Sequence record: OP870144.1
DNA length: 64,000 nucleotides
Source: Escherichia phage vB_Eco_F25
Reading direction: 5' to 3' (one strand)
Shown here one piece after another: positions 45,162 through 55,746 of the stretch. A program made the translations under genes and the position numbers. The notes under the pieces were generated by a model, which saw nothing but the letters and a program-made list of their open reading frames with translations, ran no database searches and was not told where the DNA came from. Position 1 is the first letter of the stretch. Each line of letters opens with the position of its first letter.

Positions 45162-45169
45162 TATAAATA
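45162..45169 (+). promoter_or_regulatory. Late promoter (TATAAATA) for gene 34
   Basis: Exact TATAAATA 35 nt upstream of the gene 34 ATG. Confidence 0.65.
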
Positions 45170-45203: not shown

Positions 45204-48200
45204 ATGGCCGAGATTAAAAGAAAGTTCAGAGCAGAAGACGGTCTGGACGCAGGTGGTGATAAAATAATCAACGTAGCTTTAGCTGATCGTACCGTAGGAA
45301 CTGACGGTGTAAACGTTGATTACTTAATTCAAGAAAACACAGTTCAACAATATGATCCAACTCGTGGATATTTAAAAGATTTTGTAATCATTTATGATAA
45401 CCGCTTTTGGGCTGCAATAAATGATATTCCAAAACCAGCAGGAGCTTTTAATAGCGTACGATGGAGAGCGTTACGCACTGATGCAAACTGGACAACTGTT
45501 TCGTCAGGACCTTATCAATTAAAATCAGGCGAATCGATTTCAGTTAACACCGCAGCGGGTAATGACATTACATTTACTTTGCCATCTTCTCCAATTGATG
45601 GTGATACTATCGTTCTCCAAGATATTGGAGGAAAACCTGGAGTTAACCAGGTTTTAATTACAGCTCCGGTACAAAGCATTGTAAACTTTAGAGGTCAACA
45701 AGTACGCTCAGTACTAATGACTCATCCAAAATCACAGATAGTTTTAATTTTTAGTAATCGTCTGTGGCAAATGTATGTTGCTGATTATAGCAGAGAAGCG
45801 GCAGTTGTAACGCCAGCGAGTCTTTATCAAGCGCAATCAAACGATTTTATCGTGCGTAGATTTACTTCTGCTTCAGCAATTAATATTAAACTTCCTAGAT
45901 TTGCTAATCATGGGGATATTATTAATTTTGTTGATTTAGATAAATTAAATCCGTTATATCATACTATCGTTACTACATACGATGAAACGACTTCAGTACA
46001 AGAAGTTGGAACTCATTCCATTGAAGGCCGTACATCTATTGATGGTTTCTTAATGTTTGATGATAATGAGAAATTGTGGAGATTATTTGACGGGGATAGT
46101 AAAGCACGTTTACGCATTATAACAACTAATTCAAACATCCGTCCAAATGAAGAAGTCATGGTATTTGGCGCGAATAATGGAACAACTCAAACGATTGAAC
46201 TTCAGCTTCCAACTGATATTTCTATCGGTGATACTGTTAAGATTTCCATGAATTACATGAGAAAAGGACAAACAGTTAAAATCAAAGCTGCCGGTGAAGA
46301 TAAAATTGCTTCTTCAGTTCAATTGTTGCAATTTCCAAAACGTTCAGAATACCCACCTGAAACTAAATGGGTGACTGTTCAAGAATTAGTTTTTAATGGC
46401 GAAACCAATTATGTTCCAGTTTTACAGCTTGCTTATATCGAAGATTCCGATGGAAAATATTGGGTTGTACAGCAAAACGTTCCAACTGTAGAAAGAGTAG
46501 ACTCTTTAAATAATTCTACTAGAGCAAGATTAGGTGTAATTGCATTAGCTACACAGGCTCAAGCTAATGCAGATTTAGAAAATTCTCCACAAAAAGAATT
46601 GGCAATTACTCCAGAAACGTTAGCTAATCGTACTGCTACAGAAACTCGTAGAGGTATTGCAAGAATAGCAACAACTGCGCAAGTAAACCAGGATACCACA
46701 TTCTCTTTTGCAGATGACCTTATCATCACTCCTAAAAAGTTGAATGAAAGAACTGCTACAGAAACTCGCAGAGGTGTCGCAGAAATTGCTACGCAACAGG
46801 AAACTAATACAGGTACTGATGATACTACAATCATTACTCCTAAAAAGCTTCAAGCTCGCCAAGGTTCTGAATCATTATCTGGTATTGTAACTTTTGTATC
46901 TACTGCAGGTGCTACTCCGGCTTCTAGCCGTGAATTAAATGGTACGAATGTTTATAATAAAAACACTAATAACTTAGTTGTTTCACCTAAAGCCTTGGAT
47001 CAGTATAAAGCTACTCCAACACAGCAAGGTGCGGTAATTTTAGCAGTTGAAAGTGAAGTAATTGCTGGACAAAGTCAAGAAGGATGGGCAAATGCGGTTG
47101 TAACGCCAGAAACGTTACATAAAAAGACATCAACTGATGGAAGAATTGGTTTAATTGAAATTGCTACTCAAAGTGAAGTTAATACAGGAACTGATTATAC
47201 TCGTGCAGTCACTCCTAAAACTTTAAATGACCGTAGAGCAACTGAAAGTTTAAGTGGTATAGCTGAAATTGCTACACAAGTTGAATTCGACGCAGGCGTC
47301 GACGATACTCGTATCTCTACACCATTAAAAATTAAAACTAGATTTAATAGTACTGATCGTACTTCTGTTGTTGCTCTATCTGGATTAGTTGAATCAGGAA
47401 CTCTCTGGGACCATTATACCCTTAATATTCTTGAAGCAAATGAGACACAACGTGGTACACTTCGTGTGGCTACACAAGTTGAAGCTGCTGCTGGAAAATT
47501 AGATAATGTTTTAATAACTCCTAAAAAGCTTTTAGGTACTAAATCTACCGAATCACAAGAAGGTGTTATTAAAGTTGCAACTCAGTCTGAAACTGTGGCT
47601 GGAACGTCAGCGAACACTGCTGTATCTCCAAAAAATTTAAAATGGATTGTACAGAGTGAACCTACCTGGGCAGCTACTACTGCGATAAGAGGTTTTGTTA
47701 AAACTTCATCTGGTTCAATTACATTTGTCGGTAATGATACAGTCGGTTCTACCCAAGATTTAGAACTGTATGAGAAAAATAGCTATGCAGTATCACCATA
47801 CGAATTAAACCGTGTATTAGCAAATTATTTGCCATTAAAAGCAAAAGCTGCAGATAGTAATTTATTGGATGGTCTAGATTCATCTCAGTTCATTCGTAGG
47901 GATATTGCGCAGACGGTTAATGGTTCACTAACCTTAACTCAACAAACGAATCTGAGTGCCCCTCTTGTATCATCTAGTACTGCTACGTTCGGTGGATCAG
48001 TTTCAGCAAATAGTACATTAACTATTTCTAATACTGGAACAGCAACTCGATTGATTTTTGAGAAAGGACCTCAAACTGGAACAAACCCAGCCCAAACGAT
48101 GACTGTTAGAGTGTGGGGAAATCAATTTAGTGGGGAATTAGATACAACGCGTTCTACCGTATTTGAAGTTAGTGATGAAACATCTAGTCATTTTTATTCT

Positions 48201-49073
48201 CAGCGCAATAAAGCCGGAAATATAACATTTAATATCAACGGTACAGTAACACCGATAAATGTTAATGCTTCAGGAACATTGAATGCAAATGGAGTAGCAA
48301 CATTTGGTAATTCAGTCACTGCAACTGGTGAAATTATTTCTCGAAGCGCAAATGCTTTCCGTGCTATTAACGGAAATTATGGTTTCATTGTTCGCAATGA
48401 TGGATCAGTAACGAATTTTATGCTTACTGCATCGGGTGATCAGACTGGTGGATTTAATGGATTACGTCCTTTGGCTATTAATAATGCATCTGGTCAAGTA
48501 ACGATTGGTGAAAGCTTAATCATCGCCAAAGGTGCTACTATAAATTCTGGTGGTTTAACTGTTAATTCGAGAATTCGTTCTCAAGGTACTAAAACTTCTG
48601 ATTTATATACCCGTGCGCCAACATCTGATACTGTAGGATTCTGGTCAATTGATATTAATGATTCAGCTACTTATAACCAGTTCCCAGGTTATTTTAAAAT
48701 GGTTGAAAAAACTAATGAAGTGACTGGTCTTCCATATTTAGAACGTGGCGAAGAAGTTAAATCTCCTGGTACATTGACTCAGTTTGGTAACACACTTGAT
48801 TCGCTTTACCAAGATTGGATTACTTATCCAACAACTCCAGAAGCGCGTACCACTCGTTGGACCCGCACATGGCAGAAAACCAAAAATTCTTGGTCAAGTT
48901 TTGTTCAGGTATTTGATGGAGGTAACCCTCCTCAACCGTCTGATATCGGTGCTTTACCATCTGATAATGCTACAATGGGTAATCTTACTATTCGTGATTT
49001 CTTACGAATTGGTAATGTTCGCATTATTCCTGACCCAGTGAATAAAACTGTTAAATTTGAATGGGTTGAATAA
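45204..49073 (+). CDS. 34: Long tail fibre proximal subunit gp34
   Basis: 1289-aa ORF (T4 gp34 length) with late promoter at 45162-45169; internal tandem repeats (ATETRRG-type motifs). Confidence 0.95.
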   Translation: MAEIKRKFRAEDGLDAGGDKIINVALADRTVGTDGVNVDYLIQENTVQQYDPTRGYLKDFVIIYDNRFWAAINDIPKPAGAFNSVRWRALRTDANWTTVSSGPYQLKSGESISVNTAAGNDITFTLPSSPIDGDTIVLQDIGGKPGVNQVLITAPVQSIVNFRGQQVRSVLMTHPKSQIVLIFSNRLWQMYVADYSREAAVVTPASLYQAQSNDFIVRRFTSASAINIKLPRFANHGDIINFVDLDKLNPLYHTIVTTYDETTSVQEVGTHSIEGRTSIDGFLMFDDNEKLWRLFDGDSKARLRIITTNSNIRPNEEVMVFGANNGTTQTIELQLPTDISIGDTVKISMNYMRKGQTVKIKAAGEDKIASSVQLLQFPKRSEYPPETKWVTVQELVFNGETNYVPVLQLAYIEDSDGKYWVVQQNVPTVERVDSLNNSTRARLGVIALATQAQANADLENSPQKELAITPETLANRTATETRRGIARIATTAQVNQDTTFSFADDLIITPKKLNERTATETRRGVAEIATQQETNTGTDDTTIITPKKLQARQGSESLSGIVTFVSTAGATPASSRELNGTNVYNKNTNNLVVSPKALDQYKATPTQQGAVILAVESEVIAGQSQEGWANAVVTPETLHKKTSTDGRIGLIEIATQSEVNTGTDYTRAVTPKTLNDRRATESLSGIAEIATQVEFDAGVDDTRISTPLKIKTRFNSTDRTSVVALSGLVESGTLWDHYTLNILEANETQRGTLRVATQVEAAAGKLDNVLITPKKLLGTKSTESQEGVIKVATQSETVAGTSANTAVSPKNLKWIVQSEPTWAATTAIRGFVKTSSGSITFVGNDTVGSTQDLELYEKNSYAVSPYELNRVLANYLPLKAKAADSNLLDGLDSSQFIRRDIAQTVNGSLTLTQQTNLSAPLVSSSTATFGGSVSANSTLTISNTGTATRLIFEKGPQTGTNPAQTMTVRVWGNQFSGELDTTRSTVFEVSDETSSHFYSQRNKAGNITFNINGTVTPINVNASGTLNANGVATFGNSVTATGEIISRSANAFRAINGNYGFIVRNDGSVTNFMLTASGDQTGGFNGLRPLAINNASGQVTIGESLIIAKGATINSGGLTVNSRIRSQGTKTSDLYTRAPTSDTVGFWSIDINDSATYNQFPGYFKMVEKTNEVTGLPYLERGEEVKSPGTLTQFGNTLDSLYQDWITYPTTPEARTTRWTRTWQKTKNSWSSFVQVFDGGNPPQPSDIGALPSDNATMGNLTIRDFLRIGNVRIIPDPVNKTVKFEWVE

Positions 49074-49081
49074 GAGGTATT

Positions 49082-50197
49082 ATGGAAAAATTTATGGCAG
49101 AGTTTGGACAAGGATATGTCCAAACGCCATTTTTATCGGAAAGTAATTCAGTAAGATATAAAATAAGTATAGCGGGTTCTTGCCCGCTTTCTACCGCAGG
49201 GCCTTATGTTAAATTTCAAGATAATCCTGTAGGAAGTCAAACATTTAGTGCAGGTCTTCATTTAAGAGTTTTTGACCCTTCCACGGGAGCATTGGTTGAT
49301 AGTAAGTCATATGTTTTTTCTACTTCAAATGATACAACATCTGCTGCTTTTGTTAGTTTCATGAATTCTTTTTCAAGCAATAGACTTGTTGCCATATTAA
49401 CTAGCGGAAAGGTTAATTTTCCTCCTGAAGTAGTATCTTGGTTAAGAACGGCAGGAACATCTGCTTTTCCATCTGATTCTTTATTGTCAAGATTTGACGT
49501 ATCATATGCTGCCTTTTACACTTCTTCTAAAAGAGCTATCGCACTAGAGCATGTTAAACTGAGTAACAGAAAAAGCACAGATGACTATCAAACTATATTA
49601 GACGTAGTATTTGATAGTTTAGAAGATGTTGGAGCGACAGGATTTCCTAAAAGAACATATGAAAGCGTTGAGCAATTTATGTCAGCTGTTGGTGGAACTA
49701 ATAACGAAATTGCACGTCTACCTACAGCATCTGCAATAAGTAAACTTTCTGACTATAATTTAATTCCTGGAGATGTTCTTTATCTTAAAGCACAACTATA
49801 TGCTGATGCTGATTTATTAGCGTTGGGAACTACTAATATTTCAATTCGTTTTTATAATGCGTCGAATGGATATATTTCCTCTACCCAAGCTGAGTTTACT
49901 GGGCAAGCTGGGTCTTGGGAGTTAAAGGAAGATTATGTAGTTGTTCCTGAAAATGCAGTAGGATTTACGATATACGCACAGAGAACTGCACAAGCGGGTC
50001 AAGGTGGTATGAGAAATTTAAGCTTTTCTGAAGTGTCAAGAAATGGTGGCATTTCAAAACCTGCTGAATTTGGCGTTAATGGCATTCGAGTTAATTATAT
50101 CTGCGAATCTGCTTCACCTCCGGATATAATGGTACTTCCTACACAAGCATCGTCTAAAACTGGTAAAGTGTTTGGGCAAGAATTTAGAGAAGTTTAA
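49082..50197 (+). CDS. 35: Long tail fibre hinge connector gp35
   Basis: 371-aa ORF between genes 34 and 36; terminator hairpin downstream. Confidence 0.92.
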   Translation: MEKFMAEFGQGYVQTPFLSESNSVRYKISIAGSCPLSTAGPYVKFQDNPVGSQTFSAGLHLRVFDPSTGALVDSKSYVFSTSNDTTSAAFVSFMNSFSSNRLVAILTSGKVNFPPEVVSWLRTAGTSAFPSDSLLSRFDVSYAAFYTSSKRAIALEHVKLSNRKSTDDYQTILDVVFDSLEDVGATGFPKRTYESVEQFMSAVGGTNNEIARLPTASAISKLSDYNLIPGDVLYLKAQLYADADLLALGTTNISIRFYNASNGYISSTQAEFTGQAGSWELKEDYVVVPENAVGFTIYAQRTAQAGQGGMRNLSFSEVSRNGGISKPAEFGVNGIRVNYICESASPPDIMVLPTQASSKTGKVFGQEFREV

Positions 50198-50202
50198 ATT
50201 GA

Positions 50203-50229
50203 GGGAGCCTTCGGGCTCCCTTTTTCTTT
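50203..50229 (+). terminator. Terminator after gene 35
   Basis: Hairpin GGGAGCC-TTCG-GGCTCCC followed by TTTTTCTTT. Confidence 0.7.
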
Positions 50230-50236
50230 ATAAATA
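50229..50236 (+). promoter_or_regulatory. Late promoter (TATAAATA) for gene 36
   Basis: Exact TATAAATA 24 nt upstream of the gene 36 ATG, after the gene 35 terminator. Confidence 0.65.
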
Positions 50237-50259: not shown

Positions 50260-50916
50260 ATGGCTGATTTAAAAGTAGGTTCAACAACTGGAGGCTCTGT
50301 CATTTGGCATCAAGGAAATTTTCCATTGAATCCAGCCGGTGACGATGTACTCTATAAATCATTTAAAATATATTCAGAATATAATAAACCACAAGCTGCT
50401 GATAACGATTTCGTTTCTAAAGCTAATGGTGGTACATATTTAAATAAAGTAATTTTTAATAAAGGAATGACTGTTCCTGGTGCTGGGTCAGGTGACAACG
50501 GTATTTTTGCCGGTCCTGGTGATAATGCTACATATGATACTACAAATATGGATATTGTTTCATGGTATGGTATCGGCTTTAAATCATCACAAGGGGCAGC
50601 AGGTAGAACTGTAGTAATTAACACACGAAACGGAGATATTAGCTCAAAGGGTGTAATTGAAGCATCACAAATACGCGCAACTTCGTTATCACCAGTAAAT
50701 AATTATGACCTTACGAGAAAAGATTATGTTGATGGAGCAATAAATATTGTTACAACAAATGCAAACTCTAGAGTATTACGCTCTGGAGACACTATGATAG
50801 GAAATTTAACTGCGCCAAACCTTTTTTCACAGAATCCTGCATCTCAACCCTCGCATGTTCCGCGATTTGACCAAATCGTAATTAAGGATTCTGTTCAAGA
50901 TTTCGGCTATTATTAA
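50260..50916 (+). CDS. 36: Long tail fibre distal connector gp36
   Basis: 218-aa ORF with TATAAATA late promoter at 50229-50236. Confidence 0.92.
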   Translation: MADLKVGSTTGGSVIWHQGNFPLNPAGDDVLYKSFKIYSEYNKPQAADNDFVSKANGGTYLNKVIFNKGMTVPGAGSGDNGIFAGPGDNATYDTTNMDIVSWYGIGFKSSQGAAGRTVVINTRNGDISSKGVIEASQIRATSLSPVNNYDLTRKDYVDGAINIVTTNANSRVLRSGDTMIGNLTAPNLFSQNPASQPSHVPRFDQIVIKDSVQDFGYY

Positions 50917-50924
50917 GAGGACTT

Positions 50925-53900
50925 ATGGCTACTTTAAAACAAATACAATTTAAAAGAAGCAAAACGGCAGGTCAACGTCCAGCTGCTTCAGTATTAGCCG
51001 AAGGTGAATTGGCTATAAACTTAAAAGACCGTGTACTTTTTACTAAAGATGACCAGGGAAATATTATTGATTTAGGTTTTGCTAAAGGCGGTAGTATTGA
51101 CGGGAATGTTATTCATAAAGGCAATTATAACCAAACTGGAGATTATACTTTAAACGGTACATTCACCCAGACTGGTAATTTTAATTTAACCGGTATTGCT
51201 CGAGTAACTCGTGATATTATTGCTGCTGGGCAGATTATGACTGAAGGCGGAGAACTTATTACAAAAAGTTCAGGTACATCACATGTTCGTTTTCATGATT
51301 CAGCTGACCGTGAACGTGGAATCATTTTTTCTCCTGCTAATGATGGATTAACTACACAAGTAATTAACATCAGAGTTCAAGATTACAAAGCTGGTTCAGA
51401 AAACACTTTCGCTTTTAATGGAAATGGTTTGTTTTCTTCACCAGAAGTTTTTGGGTGGAAATCTGTATCAACTCCGGTAATTTATACCAATAAAGTTATC
51501 ACCAATAAAAAGGTTAAAGATGATTATGACATCTATTCGATGGCAGACAATGTTCCATTATCTGAAAGCACTACTGCTATTAATCATCTTCGTGTTATGC
51601 GTAATGCAGTTGGTTCTGGTATTTTCCATGAAGTTAAAGATAATGATGGAATAACATGGTATAGTGGAGATGGATTAGATGCTTATCTGTGGTCATTTAC
51701 CTGGAGCGGCGGAATTAAATCAAGCCACTCAATTTCTATCGGTTTAACACCCGGACCTAAGGATTACTCAATATTAGGACCGTCTAGTATCGCTTTAGGA
51801 GATAATGATACTGGATTTAAATGGCATCAAGACGGATATTATTTCAGTGTTAATAATGGCACAAAAACGTTTTTATTTAGCCCTAGCGAAACAACTAGCC
51901 TAAGAAAATTTGTAGCTGGGTATTCTACTAATGGAACCGATTTAACTACTCCTCCGACTGAAAACTATGCTCTTGCTACTGTCGTGACATATCACGACAA
52001 TAACGCGTTTGGAGATGGTCAGACTCTTTTAGGATATTATCAAGGCGGTAACTATCATCATTATTTCCGCGGCAAGGGCACTACAAACATTAATACTCAC
52101 GGAGGGTTATTAGTTACTCCTGGTAATATTGATGTTATTGGCGGTTCTGTTAATATCGATGGTAGAAATAATAATTCAACTTTAATGTTTAAAGGCTATA
52201 CCATAGGTCAAAGTTCCGTTGATAATATGTATATAGCTGTTTGGGGAAATACTTTTACTAATCCAAGCGAAGGCACCCGTAAAAATGTCATGGAAATTTC
52301 TGATGATATTGGATGGATGCATTATATTCAACGTAATAAAGATAATACGGTTGAAGCCGTATTAAATGGTCAACAAACAATTAATGAAAATATTATTGCG
52401 AAAAAGGATATTTGGGTTGACCGAGCAGTTCATACCATTGGCGAAATCACTACAAATGCTGTTAATGGTCTTCGTATTTGGAACAATGATTACGGAGTTA
52501 TTTTTAGACGCTCAGAAGAAAGTCTTCATATTATTCCTACAGCATTTGGCGAAGGAGAAACCGGTGATATTGGGCCTTTACGTCCTCTCAGCGTAGCTTT
52601 AAATTCCGGTAAAGTTACTATTCCAGATTTACAGTCAAGTTATAATACGTTCGCTGCAAATGGTTATATTAAATTTGCTGGTCATGGGGCTGGTGCCGGT
52701 GGTTATGATATTCAGTATTCACAAGCTGCTCCTATTTTCCAAGAAATCGATGATGCTGCTGTAAGCAAATATTATCCTATTGTTAAACAGAAGTTTTTAA
52801 ACGGTAAAGCTGTCTGGTCTTTAGGTACTGAAATTAATTCAGGTACATTTGTTTTACATCATCTAAAAGAAGATGGTTCACAAGGCCATACATCAAGATT
52901 TAATGCTGATGGTACAGTTAATTTCCCCGATAACGTTCAAGTCGGCGGCGGTGAAGCTACTATTGCTCGTAATGGTAATATTTTCTCAGATATTTGGAAA
53001 TCGTTTACTTCTGCGGGAGAAACCACAAATATTCGCGATGCAATAGCTACTCGTGTTTCTAAAGAAGGCGACACGATGACTGGTAAATTGACTTTATCAG
53101 CAGGCAATGATGCTCTCGTTTTAACTGCGGGCGAAGGTGCTTCGTCACATATCCGTAGTGATGTAGGTGGTACAAATAACTGGTATATAGGCAAAGGTGG
53201 CGGCGACAACGGTCTAGGTTTTTACAGTTACATTACACAGGGTGGTGTATACATAACAAATAACGGCGAAATATCGCTTTCTCCTCAAGGTCAAGGAACA
53301 TTTAATTTTAATAGAGACCGCCTTCATATAAACGGTACACAATGGGTTGCGCACCAAGCTGGTGATTGGGGAAACCAATGGCGACAAGAAGCGCCGATAT
53401 TTGTAGATTTTGGCAATGTCGGTAATGATAGTTATTACCCGATTATCAAAGGAAAATCTGGTATTACTAATGAAGGATACATATCGGGTGTTGATTTTGG
53501 TATGCGACGCACTACTAACCAATGGGCTCAGGCTATTATCCGTGTTGGTAACCAGGAAAATGGTTCTGACCCACAAGCTATCTATGAATTTCACCACAAT
53601 GGAGTTCTGTATGCTCCTAATATGGTTCAAGCTGGAGCAAGATTATCAGCTGGCGGTGGTGATCCGGTATGGCAAGGCGCATGCGTTGTTATTGGTGATA
53701 ATGATACTGGATTAGTTCATGGCGGTGATGGACGAATTAACATGGTTGCAAATGGAGTGCATATTGCTTCATGGTCTTCATCCCATCATGAACACACTGG
53801 GCTTTGGGCCACCGACGGCGCGTTTTGGACTGAAACCGGAAGAGCTATTATTTCATTTGGACATTTAATTCAACAAAATGACAGCTATTCAACATATGTC

Positions 53901-54254
53901 CGCGATGTTTATGTCCGCTCTGATATTCGTGTTAAAAAGGACCTAGTTAAATTTGAAAATGCTTCACAAACACTTTCAAAAATTAACGGTTACACTTATA
54001 TGCAGAAGCGAGGCCTAGATGAAGAAGGCAATCAGAAATGGGAACCTAACGCCGGTTTGATAGCTCAAGAAGTTCAAGCTATTTTGCCTGAATTAGTTGA
54101 AGGTGACCCTGATGGCGAAGCTTTACTTCGTTTAAACTATAACGGTGTAATTGGTTTAAATACAGCTGCAATCAATGAGCATACTGCAGAAATTGCGGAA
54201 CTTAAATCAGAAATTGAAGAACTTAAAGCATTAGTTAAATCATTGTTAAAATAA
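50925..54254 (+). CDS. 37: Long tail fibre distal subunit gp37 with C-terminal chaperone-like domain
   Basis: 1109-aa ORF after gene 36; C-terminal segment (…[38 protein letters not shown]… followed by coiled coil) resembles intramolecular-chaperone domains of phage fibres. Confidence 0.92.
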
Positions 54255-54285
54255 TAAGAGGGGCTTCGGCCCCTTGGAGGTTTAT

Positions 54286-55059
54286 ATGGCAGTAGCAGGA
54301 CCGTGGGTAGGATCGTCTGCAGTAGTTAATACAGGACAAAATTGGATGGGTGGTGCCGCGCAGAGATTGAGAATGGGAATTCCGTTTTGGATGAGTAATA
54401 TGATAGGTCGATCTGTTGAAGTAATTCACACACTTGGAGCGGACCATAACTTCAATGGTCAATGGTTCCGAGATAGATGTTTTGAGGCAGGTAGTACACC
54501 TATAGTGTTTAATATCACTGGAGATTTAGTATCATATTCTAGAGACGTTCCTTTATTCTTCATGTACGGAGATACACCGAATGAATATGTTCAACTGAAT
54601 ATACATGGTGTAACGATGTATGGACGTGGCGGTAATGGCGGTAGCAATAGTCCTGGCTCAGCTGGAGGTCATTGTATTCAAAACGATATTGGTGGGAGAC
54701 TAAGAATCAATAATGGCGGAGCTATTGCAGGCGGTGGCGGCGGCGGTGGCGGCGGTAACTACGGTAGACTATCATTTGGTGGTGGTGGTGGTCGCCCATT
54801 CGGTGCTGGCGGGTCTTCCTCTCATATGAGTTCTGGTGCAACTGCTGGCTCCATTTCCGCTCCGGGTGCAGGATCTGCTGGTGAGGGGTCTCTTTGGGTA
54901 TATACAGGCGGGAATGGCGGTGAAGTTGGCTCAGCAGGAGGTAGATGTAATATTCATGGGAACGGTACAGAATATAACGGTGGTGCTGCTGGTTATGCCG
55001 TCATAGGGTCTACACCGACATGGCAAAACGTTGGAGCAATATATGGTCCAAGAGTATAA
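54286..55059 (+). CDS. 38: Receptor-recognising adhesin gp38 (T2-type, glycine-rich motifs)
   Basis: 257-aa protein from ATG 54286 (GGAGG RBS; the track ORF begins at a TTG codon); several poly-Gly motifs ([17 protein letters not shown]) separated by variable segments. Confidence 0.85.
54722..54790 (+). repeat. GGY codon tract encoding the poly-glycine motif of gp38
   Basis: ggcggtggcggcggcggtggcggcggtaac… simple-sequence tract within gene 38. Confidence 0.6.
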
Positions 55060-55089: not shown

Positions 55090-55746
55090 ATGGCAGCACC
55101 TAGAATATCATTTTCGCCCTCTGATATTCTGTTGGGTGTTCTAGATCGCTTGTTCAAAGATAACGCTACCGGGAAGGTTCTTGCTTCCCGAGTAGCTGTC
55201 GTAATTCTTTTGTTTATAATGGCGATTGTTTGGTATAGGGGAGATAGTTTCTTTGAGTACTATAAGCAATCAAAGTATGAAACATACAGTGAAATTATTG
55301 AAAAGGAAAGAAATGCACGCTTTGAATCTGTCGCCCTGGAACAACTCCAGATAGTTCATATATCATCTGAGGCAGACTTTAGTGCGGTGTATTCTTTCCG
55401 CCCTAAAAACTTAAACTATTTTGTTGATATTATAGCATATGAAGGAAAATTACCTTCAACAATAAGCGAAAAATCACTTGGAGGATATCCTGTTGATAAA
55501 ACTATGGATGAATATACAGTTCATTTAAATGGACGTCATTATTATTCCAACTCAAAATTTGCTTTTTTACCAACTAAAAAGCCTACTCCCGAAATAAACT
55601 ACATGTACAGTTGTCCATATTTTAATTTGGATAATATCTATGCTGGAACGATAACCATGTACTGGTATAGAAATGATCATATAAGTAATGACCGCCTTGA
55701 ATCAATATGTTCTCAGGCGGCCAGAATATTAGGAAGGGCTAAATAA
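55090..55746 (+). CDS. t: Holin T
   Basis: 218-aa ORF (T4 holin length); N-terminal TM helix (VAVVILLFIMAIVWY) with large periplasmic C-terminal domain; recognised sequence. Confidence 0.93.
   Translation: MAAPRISFSPSDILLGVLDRLFKDNATGKVLASRVAVVILLFIMAIVWYRGDSFFEYYKQSKYETYSEIIEKERNARFESVALEQLQIVHISSEADFSAVYSFRPKNLNYFVDIIAYEGKLPSTISEKSLGGYPVDKTMDEYTVHLNGRHYYSNSKFAFLPTKKPTPEINYMYSCPYFNLDNIYAGTITMYWYRNDHISNDRLESICSQAARILGRAK

Follow-up and report, generated by a model that had tools for sequence, protein, structure and literature searches.

Two genes on the plus strand, g37 and g38, occupied positions 50925-55059 of the analysed window, a 64,000-nucleotide stretch of DNA from Escherichia phage vB_Eco_F25 (OP870144.1). 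Both open reading frames were found where the preliminary description had placed them, and g38 was located between g37 (stop at 54254) and the holin gene t at 55090-55746, identified by a Phage_holin_T match (Pfam, E 8e-118). The gp37/gp38 architecture and both exact proteins are already known and annotated and hold no novelty: gp37 was identical over its full length to NCBI WBF79748.1 ('long tail fiber, distal subunit') and gp38 to WBF79806.1 ('tail fiber adhesin'), both from Escherichia phage vB_Eco_F25. A search of the literature library found no paper on this phage. The genes and their expression elements were as follows.

50229..50236, + strand: T4-type late-promoter box TATAAATA upstream of g36 (putative promoter)
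50925-54254, + strand: g37, precursor of the distal subunit of the long tail fibre, 1109 aa
54258..54275, + strand: tetraloop hairpin (GAGGGGC-UUCG-GCCCCUU) between g37 and g38, directly adjoining the ribosome-binding site of g38
54276-54280, + strand: Shine-Dalgarno GGAGG for g38, 5 nt upstream of ATG 54286
54286..55059, + strand: g38, T2-type tail fibre adhesin, 257 aa

The box at 50229..50236 is the likely promoter of a g36-g37-g38 transcript. No second copy was present between it and g38, and the three genes would probably be co-transcribed late. A UUCG hairpin with a T-run was located just before the box, at 50201-50222. The g37-g38 hairpin had a folding energy of -13 kcal/mol (z = -1.1 versus shuffles), which alone gives no statistical support, and no T-run was present 3' of it on the + strand. 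The mechanical ORF start of gp38, TTG 54274, was rejected, as it overlaps the hairpin and the ribosome-binding site. The real start codon is ATG 54286, which aligned with residue 1 of the S16, BECP11 and FL18 adhesins. No Rfam family or tRNA was detected in scans of the complete window.

The shaft, tip and chaperone domain of gp37

The gp37 protein was 98.0% identical to gp37 of BECP11, and the following regions were assigned to it.

52272..52592, + strand: gp34-shared domain, residues 450-556, like the gp34 C-terminal trimerisation region (Pfam Gp34_trimer, E 9.8e-07)
53673..53876, + strand: distal tip region, residues 917-984, where 15 of the 22 residues differing from BECP11 gp37 lie
53904..53918, + strand: DVYVR, residues 994-998, predicted final strand of the mature fibre and predicted gp38 docking surface
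53919..54251, + strand: intramolecular chaperone (IMC; Peptidase_S74), residues 999-1109, 111 aa (Pfam PF13884, 6F45_A)

A segment overlapping the gp34-shared domain (residues 418-567) matched the gp34 structures PDB 4uxe/5nxf with an E value of about 1e-16. The PF13884 profile matched residues 999-1058 (E 4.4e-12, 46.5 bits against a Pfam gathering cut-off of 22 bits; profile positions 1-57 of 58). The match began exactly at S999 and fell within the C-terminal 111 residues. The Ser-Lys motif S999-D-I-R-V-K1004 occurred once in the protein, and Ser999 and Lys1004 were taken by us to be the dyad, following the Pfam/MEROPS description of the S74 family. This SDIRVK sequence aligned with SDRRIK of S16, SDIRLK of T2 and SDSRLK of T6; the SDxRxK motif was found once each in gp37 of T2, T6, Pu-Krd-SF1 and BECP11 and was absent from T4 gp37.

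Residues 918-1109 aligned end to end with the S16 gp37 tip and chaperone (6F45_A, E 3.6e-44), implying an IMC fold for the gp37 C-terminus. The chaperone domain was 56% identical to the S16 IMC and 100% identical to that of BECP11, while the T2/T6 domains (26-30%) belonged to another sub-lineage. A single-sequence AlphaFold2 model of residues 918-1109 had a mean pLDDT of 38.8, with only a helix at about 1065-1108 confident. The C-terminus of gp37 had been described earlier as resembling self-cleaving intramolecular chaperones, and this was corroborated by the S74 profile, the S-D-x-R-x-K Ser/Lys motif and the 56% identity to S16. As to the coiled coil said to follow a quoted 30-residue string, the string corresponds to residues 1021-1050, and a heptad-patterned terminal helix (about 1065-1108) comes after it.

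Cleavage of gp37 is predicted here from its sequence, whereas the autocleavage of S16 gp37 is documented (PMC7917993). The S16 protein is cut between two serines with the release of 113 residues, and its gp38 docks only after the chaperone domain has been removed (PMC7917993). The predicted cut in the present gp37, R998|S999, would release 111 residues. Directly ahead of the cleavage site, DVYVR aligned with DLNVS of S16 and DVYIR of fPS (PMC7917993). At about 954-968, the present gp37 carries 12 residues that are absent from S16, split into one insertion of 10 and one of 2. In the classical Henning-lab system of T2 and T6, the gp37 C-terminus is removed by proteolysis and gp38 then caps the fibre (PMC3157838); the equivalent processing is predicted for the present gp37. 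Three gp37 chains would fold into the distal half-fibre, aided by their own chaperone domain (residues 999-1109). After trimerisation, the chaperone would cut itself at R998|S999 via the Ser999/Lys1004 dyad and depart from the fibre, and its loss would expose a flat tip of DVYVR strands.

The adhesin architecture of gp38

The gp38 protein matched both adhesin families of Pfam over their complete profiles, namely GP38 (PF05268; E 1.4e-69, 234.7 bits against a cut-off of 25 bits; positions 1-218 of 218) and Gp38_N (PF21721; E 2.8e-21, 75.7 bits; positions 1-40 of 40, counting from ATG 54286). It also matched the solved adhesins of PP01 (9V85, E 1.6e-79) and S16 (6F45_D, full length, E 1.8e-55), the latter aligning over residues 1-254. 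Glycine made up 25% of gp38 overall and 34% of residues 130-257. In the C-terminal half, five glycine-rich motifs (GRMs) alternated with four hypervariable segments (HVSs), mapped on an 11-sequence gp38 alignment that included T2 and T6 and left out the K3 and Ox2 adhesins.

54286..54405, + strand: N-terminal attachment domain, residues 1-40 (Gp38_N; S16/PP01/BECP11 type, PWVGSS)
54619..54642, + strand: GRM1, YGRGGNGG, residues 112-119 (alignment)
54643..54729, + strand: HVS1, residues 120-148 (alignment)
54730..54756, + strand: GRM2, G9, residues 149-157 (alignment)
54757..54777, + strand: HVS2, NYGRLSF, residues 158-164 (4.4 distinct residues per column)
54778..54813, + strand: GRM3, 12 residues, 165-176 (alignment)
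54814..54906, + strand: HVS3, residues 177-207 (alignment)
54907..54945, + strand: GRM4, 13 residues, 208-220 (alignment)
54946..54978, + strand: HVS4, 11 residues, 221-231 (3.9 distinct residues per column)
54979..55056, + strand: GRM5, GGAAG, residues 232-236, and conserved C-terminal strand, residues 237-257 (alignment)

The poly-glycine motifs quoted in the preliminary description were present: GGGGGGGGG corresponds to residues 149-157 and is followed by NYG, and GGGGG corresponds to residues 165-169. Among the 11 sequences, HVS2, HVS3 and HVS4 contained 3.1-4.4 distinct residues per column versus 1.4-2.2 in the GRMs. The proposal that the variable segments between the glycine motifs carry receptor specificity agrees with the experiments of others in this adhesin family (PMC3157838, PMC12032242, bioRxiv 10.64898/2026.04.02.716166, PMC12892980).

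Residues Trp7, Trp20 and Trp35 of gp38 aligned with the S16 tryptophans, and the N-terminal tryptophans of gp38 act as prongs plugging into the gp37 tip (PMC7917993, citing Dunne 2018). One gp38 would dock on the present gp37 tip via its N-terminal domain and these tryptophans. The glycine-rich motifs would then form a sandwich of packed polyglycine-II helices, from which the HVS1-4 loops project to bind the receptor, most probably E. coli OmpA. A fibre tip with an autocleaved IMC, a gp38 with a Trp-prong N-domain and a polyglycine-II sandwich are likewise the features of S16 (PDB 6F45; Dunne et al. 2018). The gene order g36-g37-g38-t, the adhesin nature of gp38 and the GRM/HVS layout are shared with T2/T6. 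Cleavage, docking and OmpA binding are suggested for the present proteins by these and other homologues.

Two readings of the locus depart from this architecture. It is very improbable that the S74 domain is an uncleaved relic that stays on the fibre. Cleavage of gp37 is a prediction, and the AlphaFold2 model of its C-terminus was uninformative (pLDDT 38.8), but gp37 retains an intact Ser/Lys motif, its S74 domain is full-length (profile positions 1-57 of 58) and shows 100% identity to that of BECP11, and docking of S16 gp38 needs the S74 domain removed. We give still less credence, practically none, to gp38 being solely an assembly chaperone, as in T4, with the receptor-binding site in gp37 itself. 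The g38 gene does occupy the same position as T4 g38, and the substitution cluster at the gp37 tip (917-984) could hint at surface contact by gp37. However, gp38 had no similarity to T4 gp38 (BLASTP, E 1.9), it was strongly homologous over its full length to adhesins whose structures were determined as complexes with the fibre tip, and swaps of gp38 retarget closely related phages in the experiments of others. A T4-type chaperone identity was rejected on the BLASTP result, and no Pfam family matching the T4-type gp38 chaperone was found in gp38. T4 shares the locus and its long-tail-fibre role, but T4 gp37 is devoid of the SDxRxK/S74 domain and bears its own receptor-binding tip, and T4 gp38 is an unrelated chaperone.

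The earlier identification of gp38 as a T2-type adhesin is backed by both adhesin Pfam families, the matches to solved adhesins and the E value of 1.9 against T4 gp38. No significant alignment to T4-type gp38 was obtained, and gp37 appears to carry a C-terminal domain of the cleavable type. The module at 50925-55059 is very probably the distal host-recognition tip of a Tequatrovirus long tail fibre that is of the T2 type and not of the T4 type.

Mosaic origin and predicted receptor

Informative sites and sliding identity defined a change of affinity within g38.

54432..54600, + strand: recombination crossover zone in g38, codons about 50-105

The informative sites were BECP11-like upstream of this zone and Pu-Krd-SF1-like downstream of it. 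The N-domain of gp38 was 100% identical to that of BECP11, the phage with the identical IMC, and 47-58% identical to those of T2, T6 and Pu-Krd-SF1. The N-domain of IME340, Pu-Krd-SF1, FL12 and EV240 is of the T2/T6 type (VPGWIG; 49-58% identical over residues 1-40). The gp37 protein of Pu-Krd-SF1 was 60% identical overall to the present one (IMC, 28%), and those of T2/T6 were 28-29% identical. In contrast, the receptor-binding half of gp38 was 92-100% identical to that of IME340, Pu-Krd-SF1/2/5/7, FL12 and EV240 ('type 2', Lutz et al. 2025). The gp38 C-domain of the E. coli O157 phages PP01, AR1 and BECP11 (PP01 gp38 RBD, PDB 9V85) is of the OmpC(O157)-binding type and was 57% identical.

On these comparisons, the module is a natural recombinant of a PP01/AR1/BECP11-lineage fibre and gp38 docking domain with an OmpA-lineage receptor-binding half. 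The PP01/AR1/BECP11 (O157, OmpC-type) lineage would have contributed gp37 (shaft, tip and chaperone) together with the docking domain of gp38, and an OmpA-binding lineage (Pu-Krd-SF, IME340) the receptor-binding half of gp38, with the join in the conserved gp38 core. GRM-mediated crossover (the Tetart and Trojet model) was rejected as the origin of the mosaic, since the junction falls within the conserved core, 5' of GRM1. The position of the junction is compatible with ordinary homologous recombination. In a T2/PP01 experiment, gp37 compatibility depended on the N-terminal 113 aa of gp38 (PMC12892980).

The receptor of gp38 is likely E. coli OmpA, as the receptor-binding half closely matches those of the OmpA users IME340, FL12 and EV240. 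Residues 126-257 were 100% identical to Pu-Krd-SF1/2/5/7, 97% to IME340, 91.7% to FL12 and EV240, and 83-92% across FL12, FL18, FL20 and EV240, the corresponding values being 77% for Tsx types and 50-57% for OmpC/FadL types. From residue 50 on, gp38 differed from IME340 at 5 positions; HVS2 and HVS4 were identical, and the 4 differences in HVS3 were conservative (S/G, S/A, S/T, A/V). HVS1 matched that of T6 and the OmpA-type adhesins at every residue; its identity to the OmpC and FadL types was 55-71%. HVS2 has the short form common to the OmpA type-2 adhesins, and a 4-residue insertion in HVS3 was shared with gp38, in this alignment, only by these adhesins and Pu-Krd-SF1. By C-domain identity and class-specific segments, gp38 fits the OmpA-binding 'type 2' class (Lutz et al. 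2025). The use of OmpA was demonstrated for IME340 by deletion, complementation and adsorption assays (PMC6499177) and was reported for FL12, FL18 and FL20 (PMC12032242) and for EV240 (bioRxiv 10.64898/2026.04.02.716166). S16 differs in that it binds Salmonella OmpC; its C-domain is 50% identical to that of gp38, and its HVS loops are unrelated (9-32% for HVS2-4). The T2 receptors are FadL/OmpF, and the T6 receptor is Tsx.

The same architecture could be directed to Tsx or another beta-barrel protein through a few retargeting HVS substitutions, and we regard this as unlikely. The OmpA type-2 adhesins are near the Tsx binders, residues 126-257 of gp38 being 77% identical to T6 and FL23, and Lutz et al. 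argued for a recent origin of type 2 among Tsx binders. Single HVS substitutions can switch the receptor, as in RB68, in which Q206L shifted it from OmpF to OmpW (bioRxiv 10.64898/2026.04.02.716166), and gp38 has four differences from IME340 in HVS3. Nevertheless, these changes are conservative, HVS2 and HVS4 are identical to those of an OmpA user, and the short HVS2 with the 4-residue HVS3 insertion was found in 4/4 tested OmpA type-2 adhesins aligned and was absent from the Tsx types. The distal tip of gp37 invites a further reading. Across 53673..53876, nucleotide identity to BECP11 fell to 0.80-0.88, and the sole HxH motif of gp37 (HEH, residues 955-957) lies inside this region. Because 15 of the 22 gp37 substitutions cluster at the tip, beside a swapped-in OmpA-type adhesin, there is a slight chance that the gp37 tip of T2-type fibres is not a passive dock and co-adapts with the receptor domain of gp38 or itself touches the cell surface (e.g., LPS).

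Significance for host range

The module carries little weight as a discovery, as its architecture is familiar from work of the Henning lab in the 1980s and crystal structures are available (6F45, 9V85). Its practical use lies in reading the receptor off the gp38 sequence (OmpA, the narrow-range 'type 2' class). If the gp37 tip were active, the pair of gp37 tip and gp38, and not the gp38 loops alone, would set the host range. With an O157/OmpC-lineage fibre that bears an OmpA adhesin, the locus is a clean natural case of a phage-engineering rule: the N-domain of gp38 must fit the gp37 tip, and the C-terminal half can be swapped for retargeting.

Gene setting of the fibre tip

The window contained a segment of a T-even phage (Tequatrovirus) genome carrying the canonical late block, with a backbone 96-97% identical to many deposited Tequatroviruses. 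Neither tRNA genes nor Rfam families at the gathering threshold were found across the whole 64 kb. The following genes include the fibre-tip module, whose outer coordinates (50925-55059) had been placed correctly in the preliminary description:

g34, 45204-49073, proximal fibre
g35, 49082-50197, hinge protein
g36, 50260-50916
g37, 50925-54254, long tail fibre distal subunit, 1109 aa
g38, 54286-55059, tail fibre adhesin, 257 aa
holin gene t, 55090-55746

A GC-rich UUCG-loop hairpin with a T-run (GAGGGAGCC-TTCG-GGCTCCCTT TTTCTTT, within 50201-50236) was located directly 3' of g35, adjoined in front of g36 by a T4 late-promoter box, TATAAATA (50229-50236). Together they look like a terminator/promoter pair that sets the late unit g34-g35 apart from g36-g37-g38; another late box, at 45162, was present ahead of g34. 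Residues 58-127 of gp35 matched Pfam ILEI (interleukin-like EMT inducer/FAM3-type domain; E 3.5e-07, 31.1 bits versus a cut-off of 27), a family whose name is surprising for the hinge of a phage fibre. Residues 418-567 of gp37 (52176-52625) were homologous to the C-terminal region of gp34 (PDB 4uxe/5nxf, E ~1e-16; Pfam Gp34_trimer); by sequence homology, one module is common to both half-fibres.

The gp37 intramolecular chaperone and its predicted cleavage site

The chaperone-like C-terminus proposed for gp37 was borne out by Pfam, which assigned residues 999-1058 to Peptidase_S74 ('chaperone of endosialidase'; 46.5 bits, cut-off 22), and the string quoted for it was found at residues 1021-1050. 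The match began exactly at S999, the first residue of S999-D-I-R-V-K1004, the Ser/Lys signature of the Peptidase S74 family. SDxRxK occurred once in each T2-type gp37 retrieved (BECP11, Pu-Krd-SF1, T2 and T6), 99-117 residues from the C-terminus, and was absent from T4 gp37. Residues 918-1109 matched the crystallised gp37 fragment of Salmonella phage S16 (6F45_A) through to the end (E 3.6e-44), with 56% identity in the chaperone part. S16 gp37 reportedly cleaves itself at DLNVS^SDRRIKK, which frees 113 residues and uncovers the surface on which gp38 docks (PMC7917993); C-terminal processing followed by gp38 capping has also been described for T2 and T6 (PMC3157838). By alignment, the predicted cut is DVYVR998^S999DIRVKK, which would release 111 residues. 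The last ~44 residues displayed a hydrophobic 3-4-3-4 heptad pattern, and this terminal helix was the sole confident part of a single-sequence AlphaFold model of the C-terminus that was useless overall (pLDDT 38.8).

Just N-terminal of the predicted site, residues 917-984 (53673-53876; 68 residues of the distal tip) held 15 of the 22 amino acid differences from BECP11 gp37. Two insertions absent from S16 add 12 residues to this region, which also contains the sole HxH motif of gp37 (HEH, 955-957; HSH in BECP11).

The gp38 adhesin and its predicted receptor

The mechanical g38 ORF began at TTG 54274. This start was rejected because GGAGG lies 5 nt 5' of ATG 54286, and both the Gp38_N profile (positions 1-40 of 40) and the homologues begin at that Met; the product comprises 257 aa. 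Between g37 and g38, a second hairpin with a C(UUCG)G tetraloop (GAGGGGC-UUCG-GCCCCUU; within 54258-54280; -13 kcal/mol) directly adjoins this Shine-Dalgarno sequence and lacks a T-run. Compared with shuffled sequences, its folding energy did not reach significance (z = -1.1); the hairpin may make the mRNA more stable or modulate how g38 is translated.

The assignment of gp38 as a T2-type adhesin was upheld: it matched PF05268 over the full profile (E 1.4e-69), PF21721 (E 2.8e-21), the solved PP01 gp38 receptor-binding domain 9V85 (E 1.6e-79; identified via PMC12892980) and, full-length, S16 gp38 6F45_D (E 1.8e-55), and bore no resemblance to the chaperone gp38 of T4 (E 1.9). The poly-glycine runs noted earlier were present at residues 149-157 and 165-169. 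Alignment with ten adhesins (T2, T6, S16, BECP11, Pu-Krd-SF1, FL12, FL18, FL20, FL23 and EV240), an approach suggested earlier for mapping hypervariable segments, resolved:

residues 1-40, attachment domain (W7, W20, W35)
residues 41-111, conserved core
glycine-rich motifs GRM1-5 and hypervariable segments HVS1-4, on the same alignment

The most variable columns were HVS2, HVS3 and HVS4. Both the observations and the interpretation of the preliminary description were correct.

Residues 126-257 were 100% identical to Pu-Krd-SF1/2/5/7, 97% to IME340 and 91.7% to FL12 and EV240. OmpA was established as the IME340 receptor by resistant mutants, deletion, complementation and adsorption assays (PMC6499177). 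From residue 50 onward IME340 differed at only five positions (R86K and four conservative HVS3 changes), HVS2 and HVS4 being identical. FL12, FL18 and FL20 (PMC12032242) and EV240 (bioRxiv 2026.04.02.716166) are OmpA users as well. The Tsx binders T6 and FL23 were 77% identical in the receptor-binding half and had neither the short form of HVS2 nor the insertion of four residues in HVS3. The likeness to IME340, FL12 and EV240, together with the absence of these two features from the Tsx binders, points to OmpA as the highly probable receptor.

Mosaic origin of the module

From g35 to the first ~150 nt of g38, the sequence tracked the O157 phage BECP11, mostly at 93-100% nucleotide identity in 150-nt windows (dips: 0.89 at ~49800 and 0.80-0.88 at 53700-53999). 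From ~54600 to the g38 end it tracked Pu-Krd-SF1 (96-100%), whereas BECP11, whose adhesin half is PP01-like and of OmpC type, reached only 56-73%. Informative sites switched at 54432-54600, within the conserved core and upstream of GRM1. GC content was 0.49 across 54500-54999, compared with ~0.36 in the genome around it, and GC skew was strongly positive; a foreign origin was rejected, as the glycine codons (GGN) crowded into the C-terminal half of gp38 account for both. The gp37 chaperone and gp38 N-domain formed two linked lineages, S16/PP01-like ('PWVGSS') versus T2/T6-like ('VPGWIG'; only 26-30% chaperone identity). This pairing fits the experimental demonstration that the N-terminal 113 aa of gp38 must match gp37 (PMC12892980).

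Near-identical full-length gp38 already exists in Pu-Krd-SF6 (98.4%) and others, and exact-sequence look-up returned both proteins from NCBI under Escherichia phage vB_Eco_F25, on a contig of 166,974 bp (gp37, WBF79748.1, 'long tail fiber, distal subunit'; gp38, WBF79806.1, 'tail fiber adhesin'). The module is a standard, structurally characterised and previously annotated T2-type fibre tip. The present analysis adds a predicted receptor class (OmpA 'type 2', which includes FL12, FL18 and FL20), predicts exactly where gp37 would be cleaved, corrects the start of g38 and maps the recombination.
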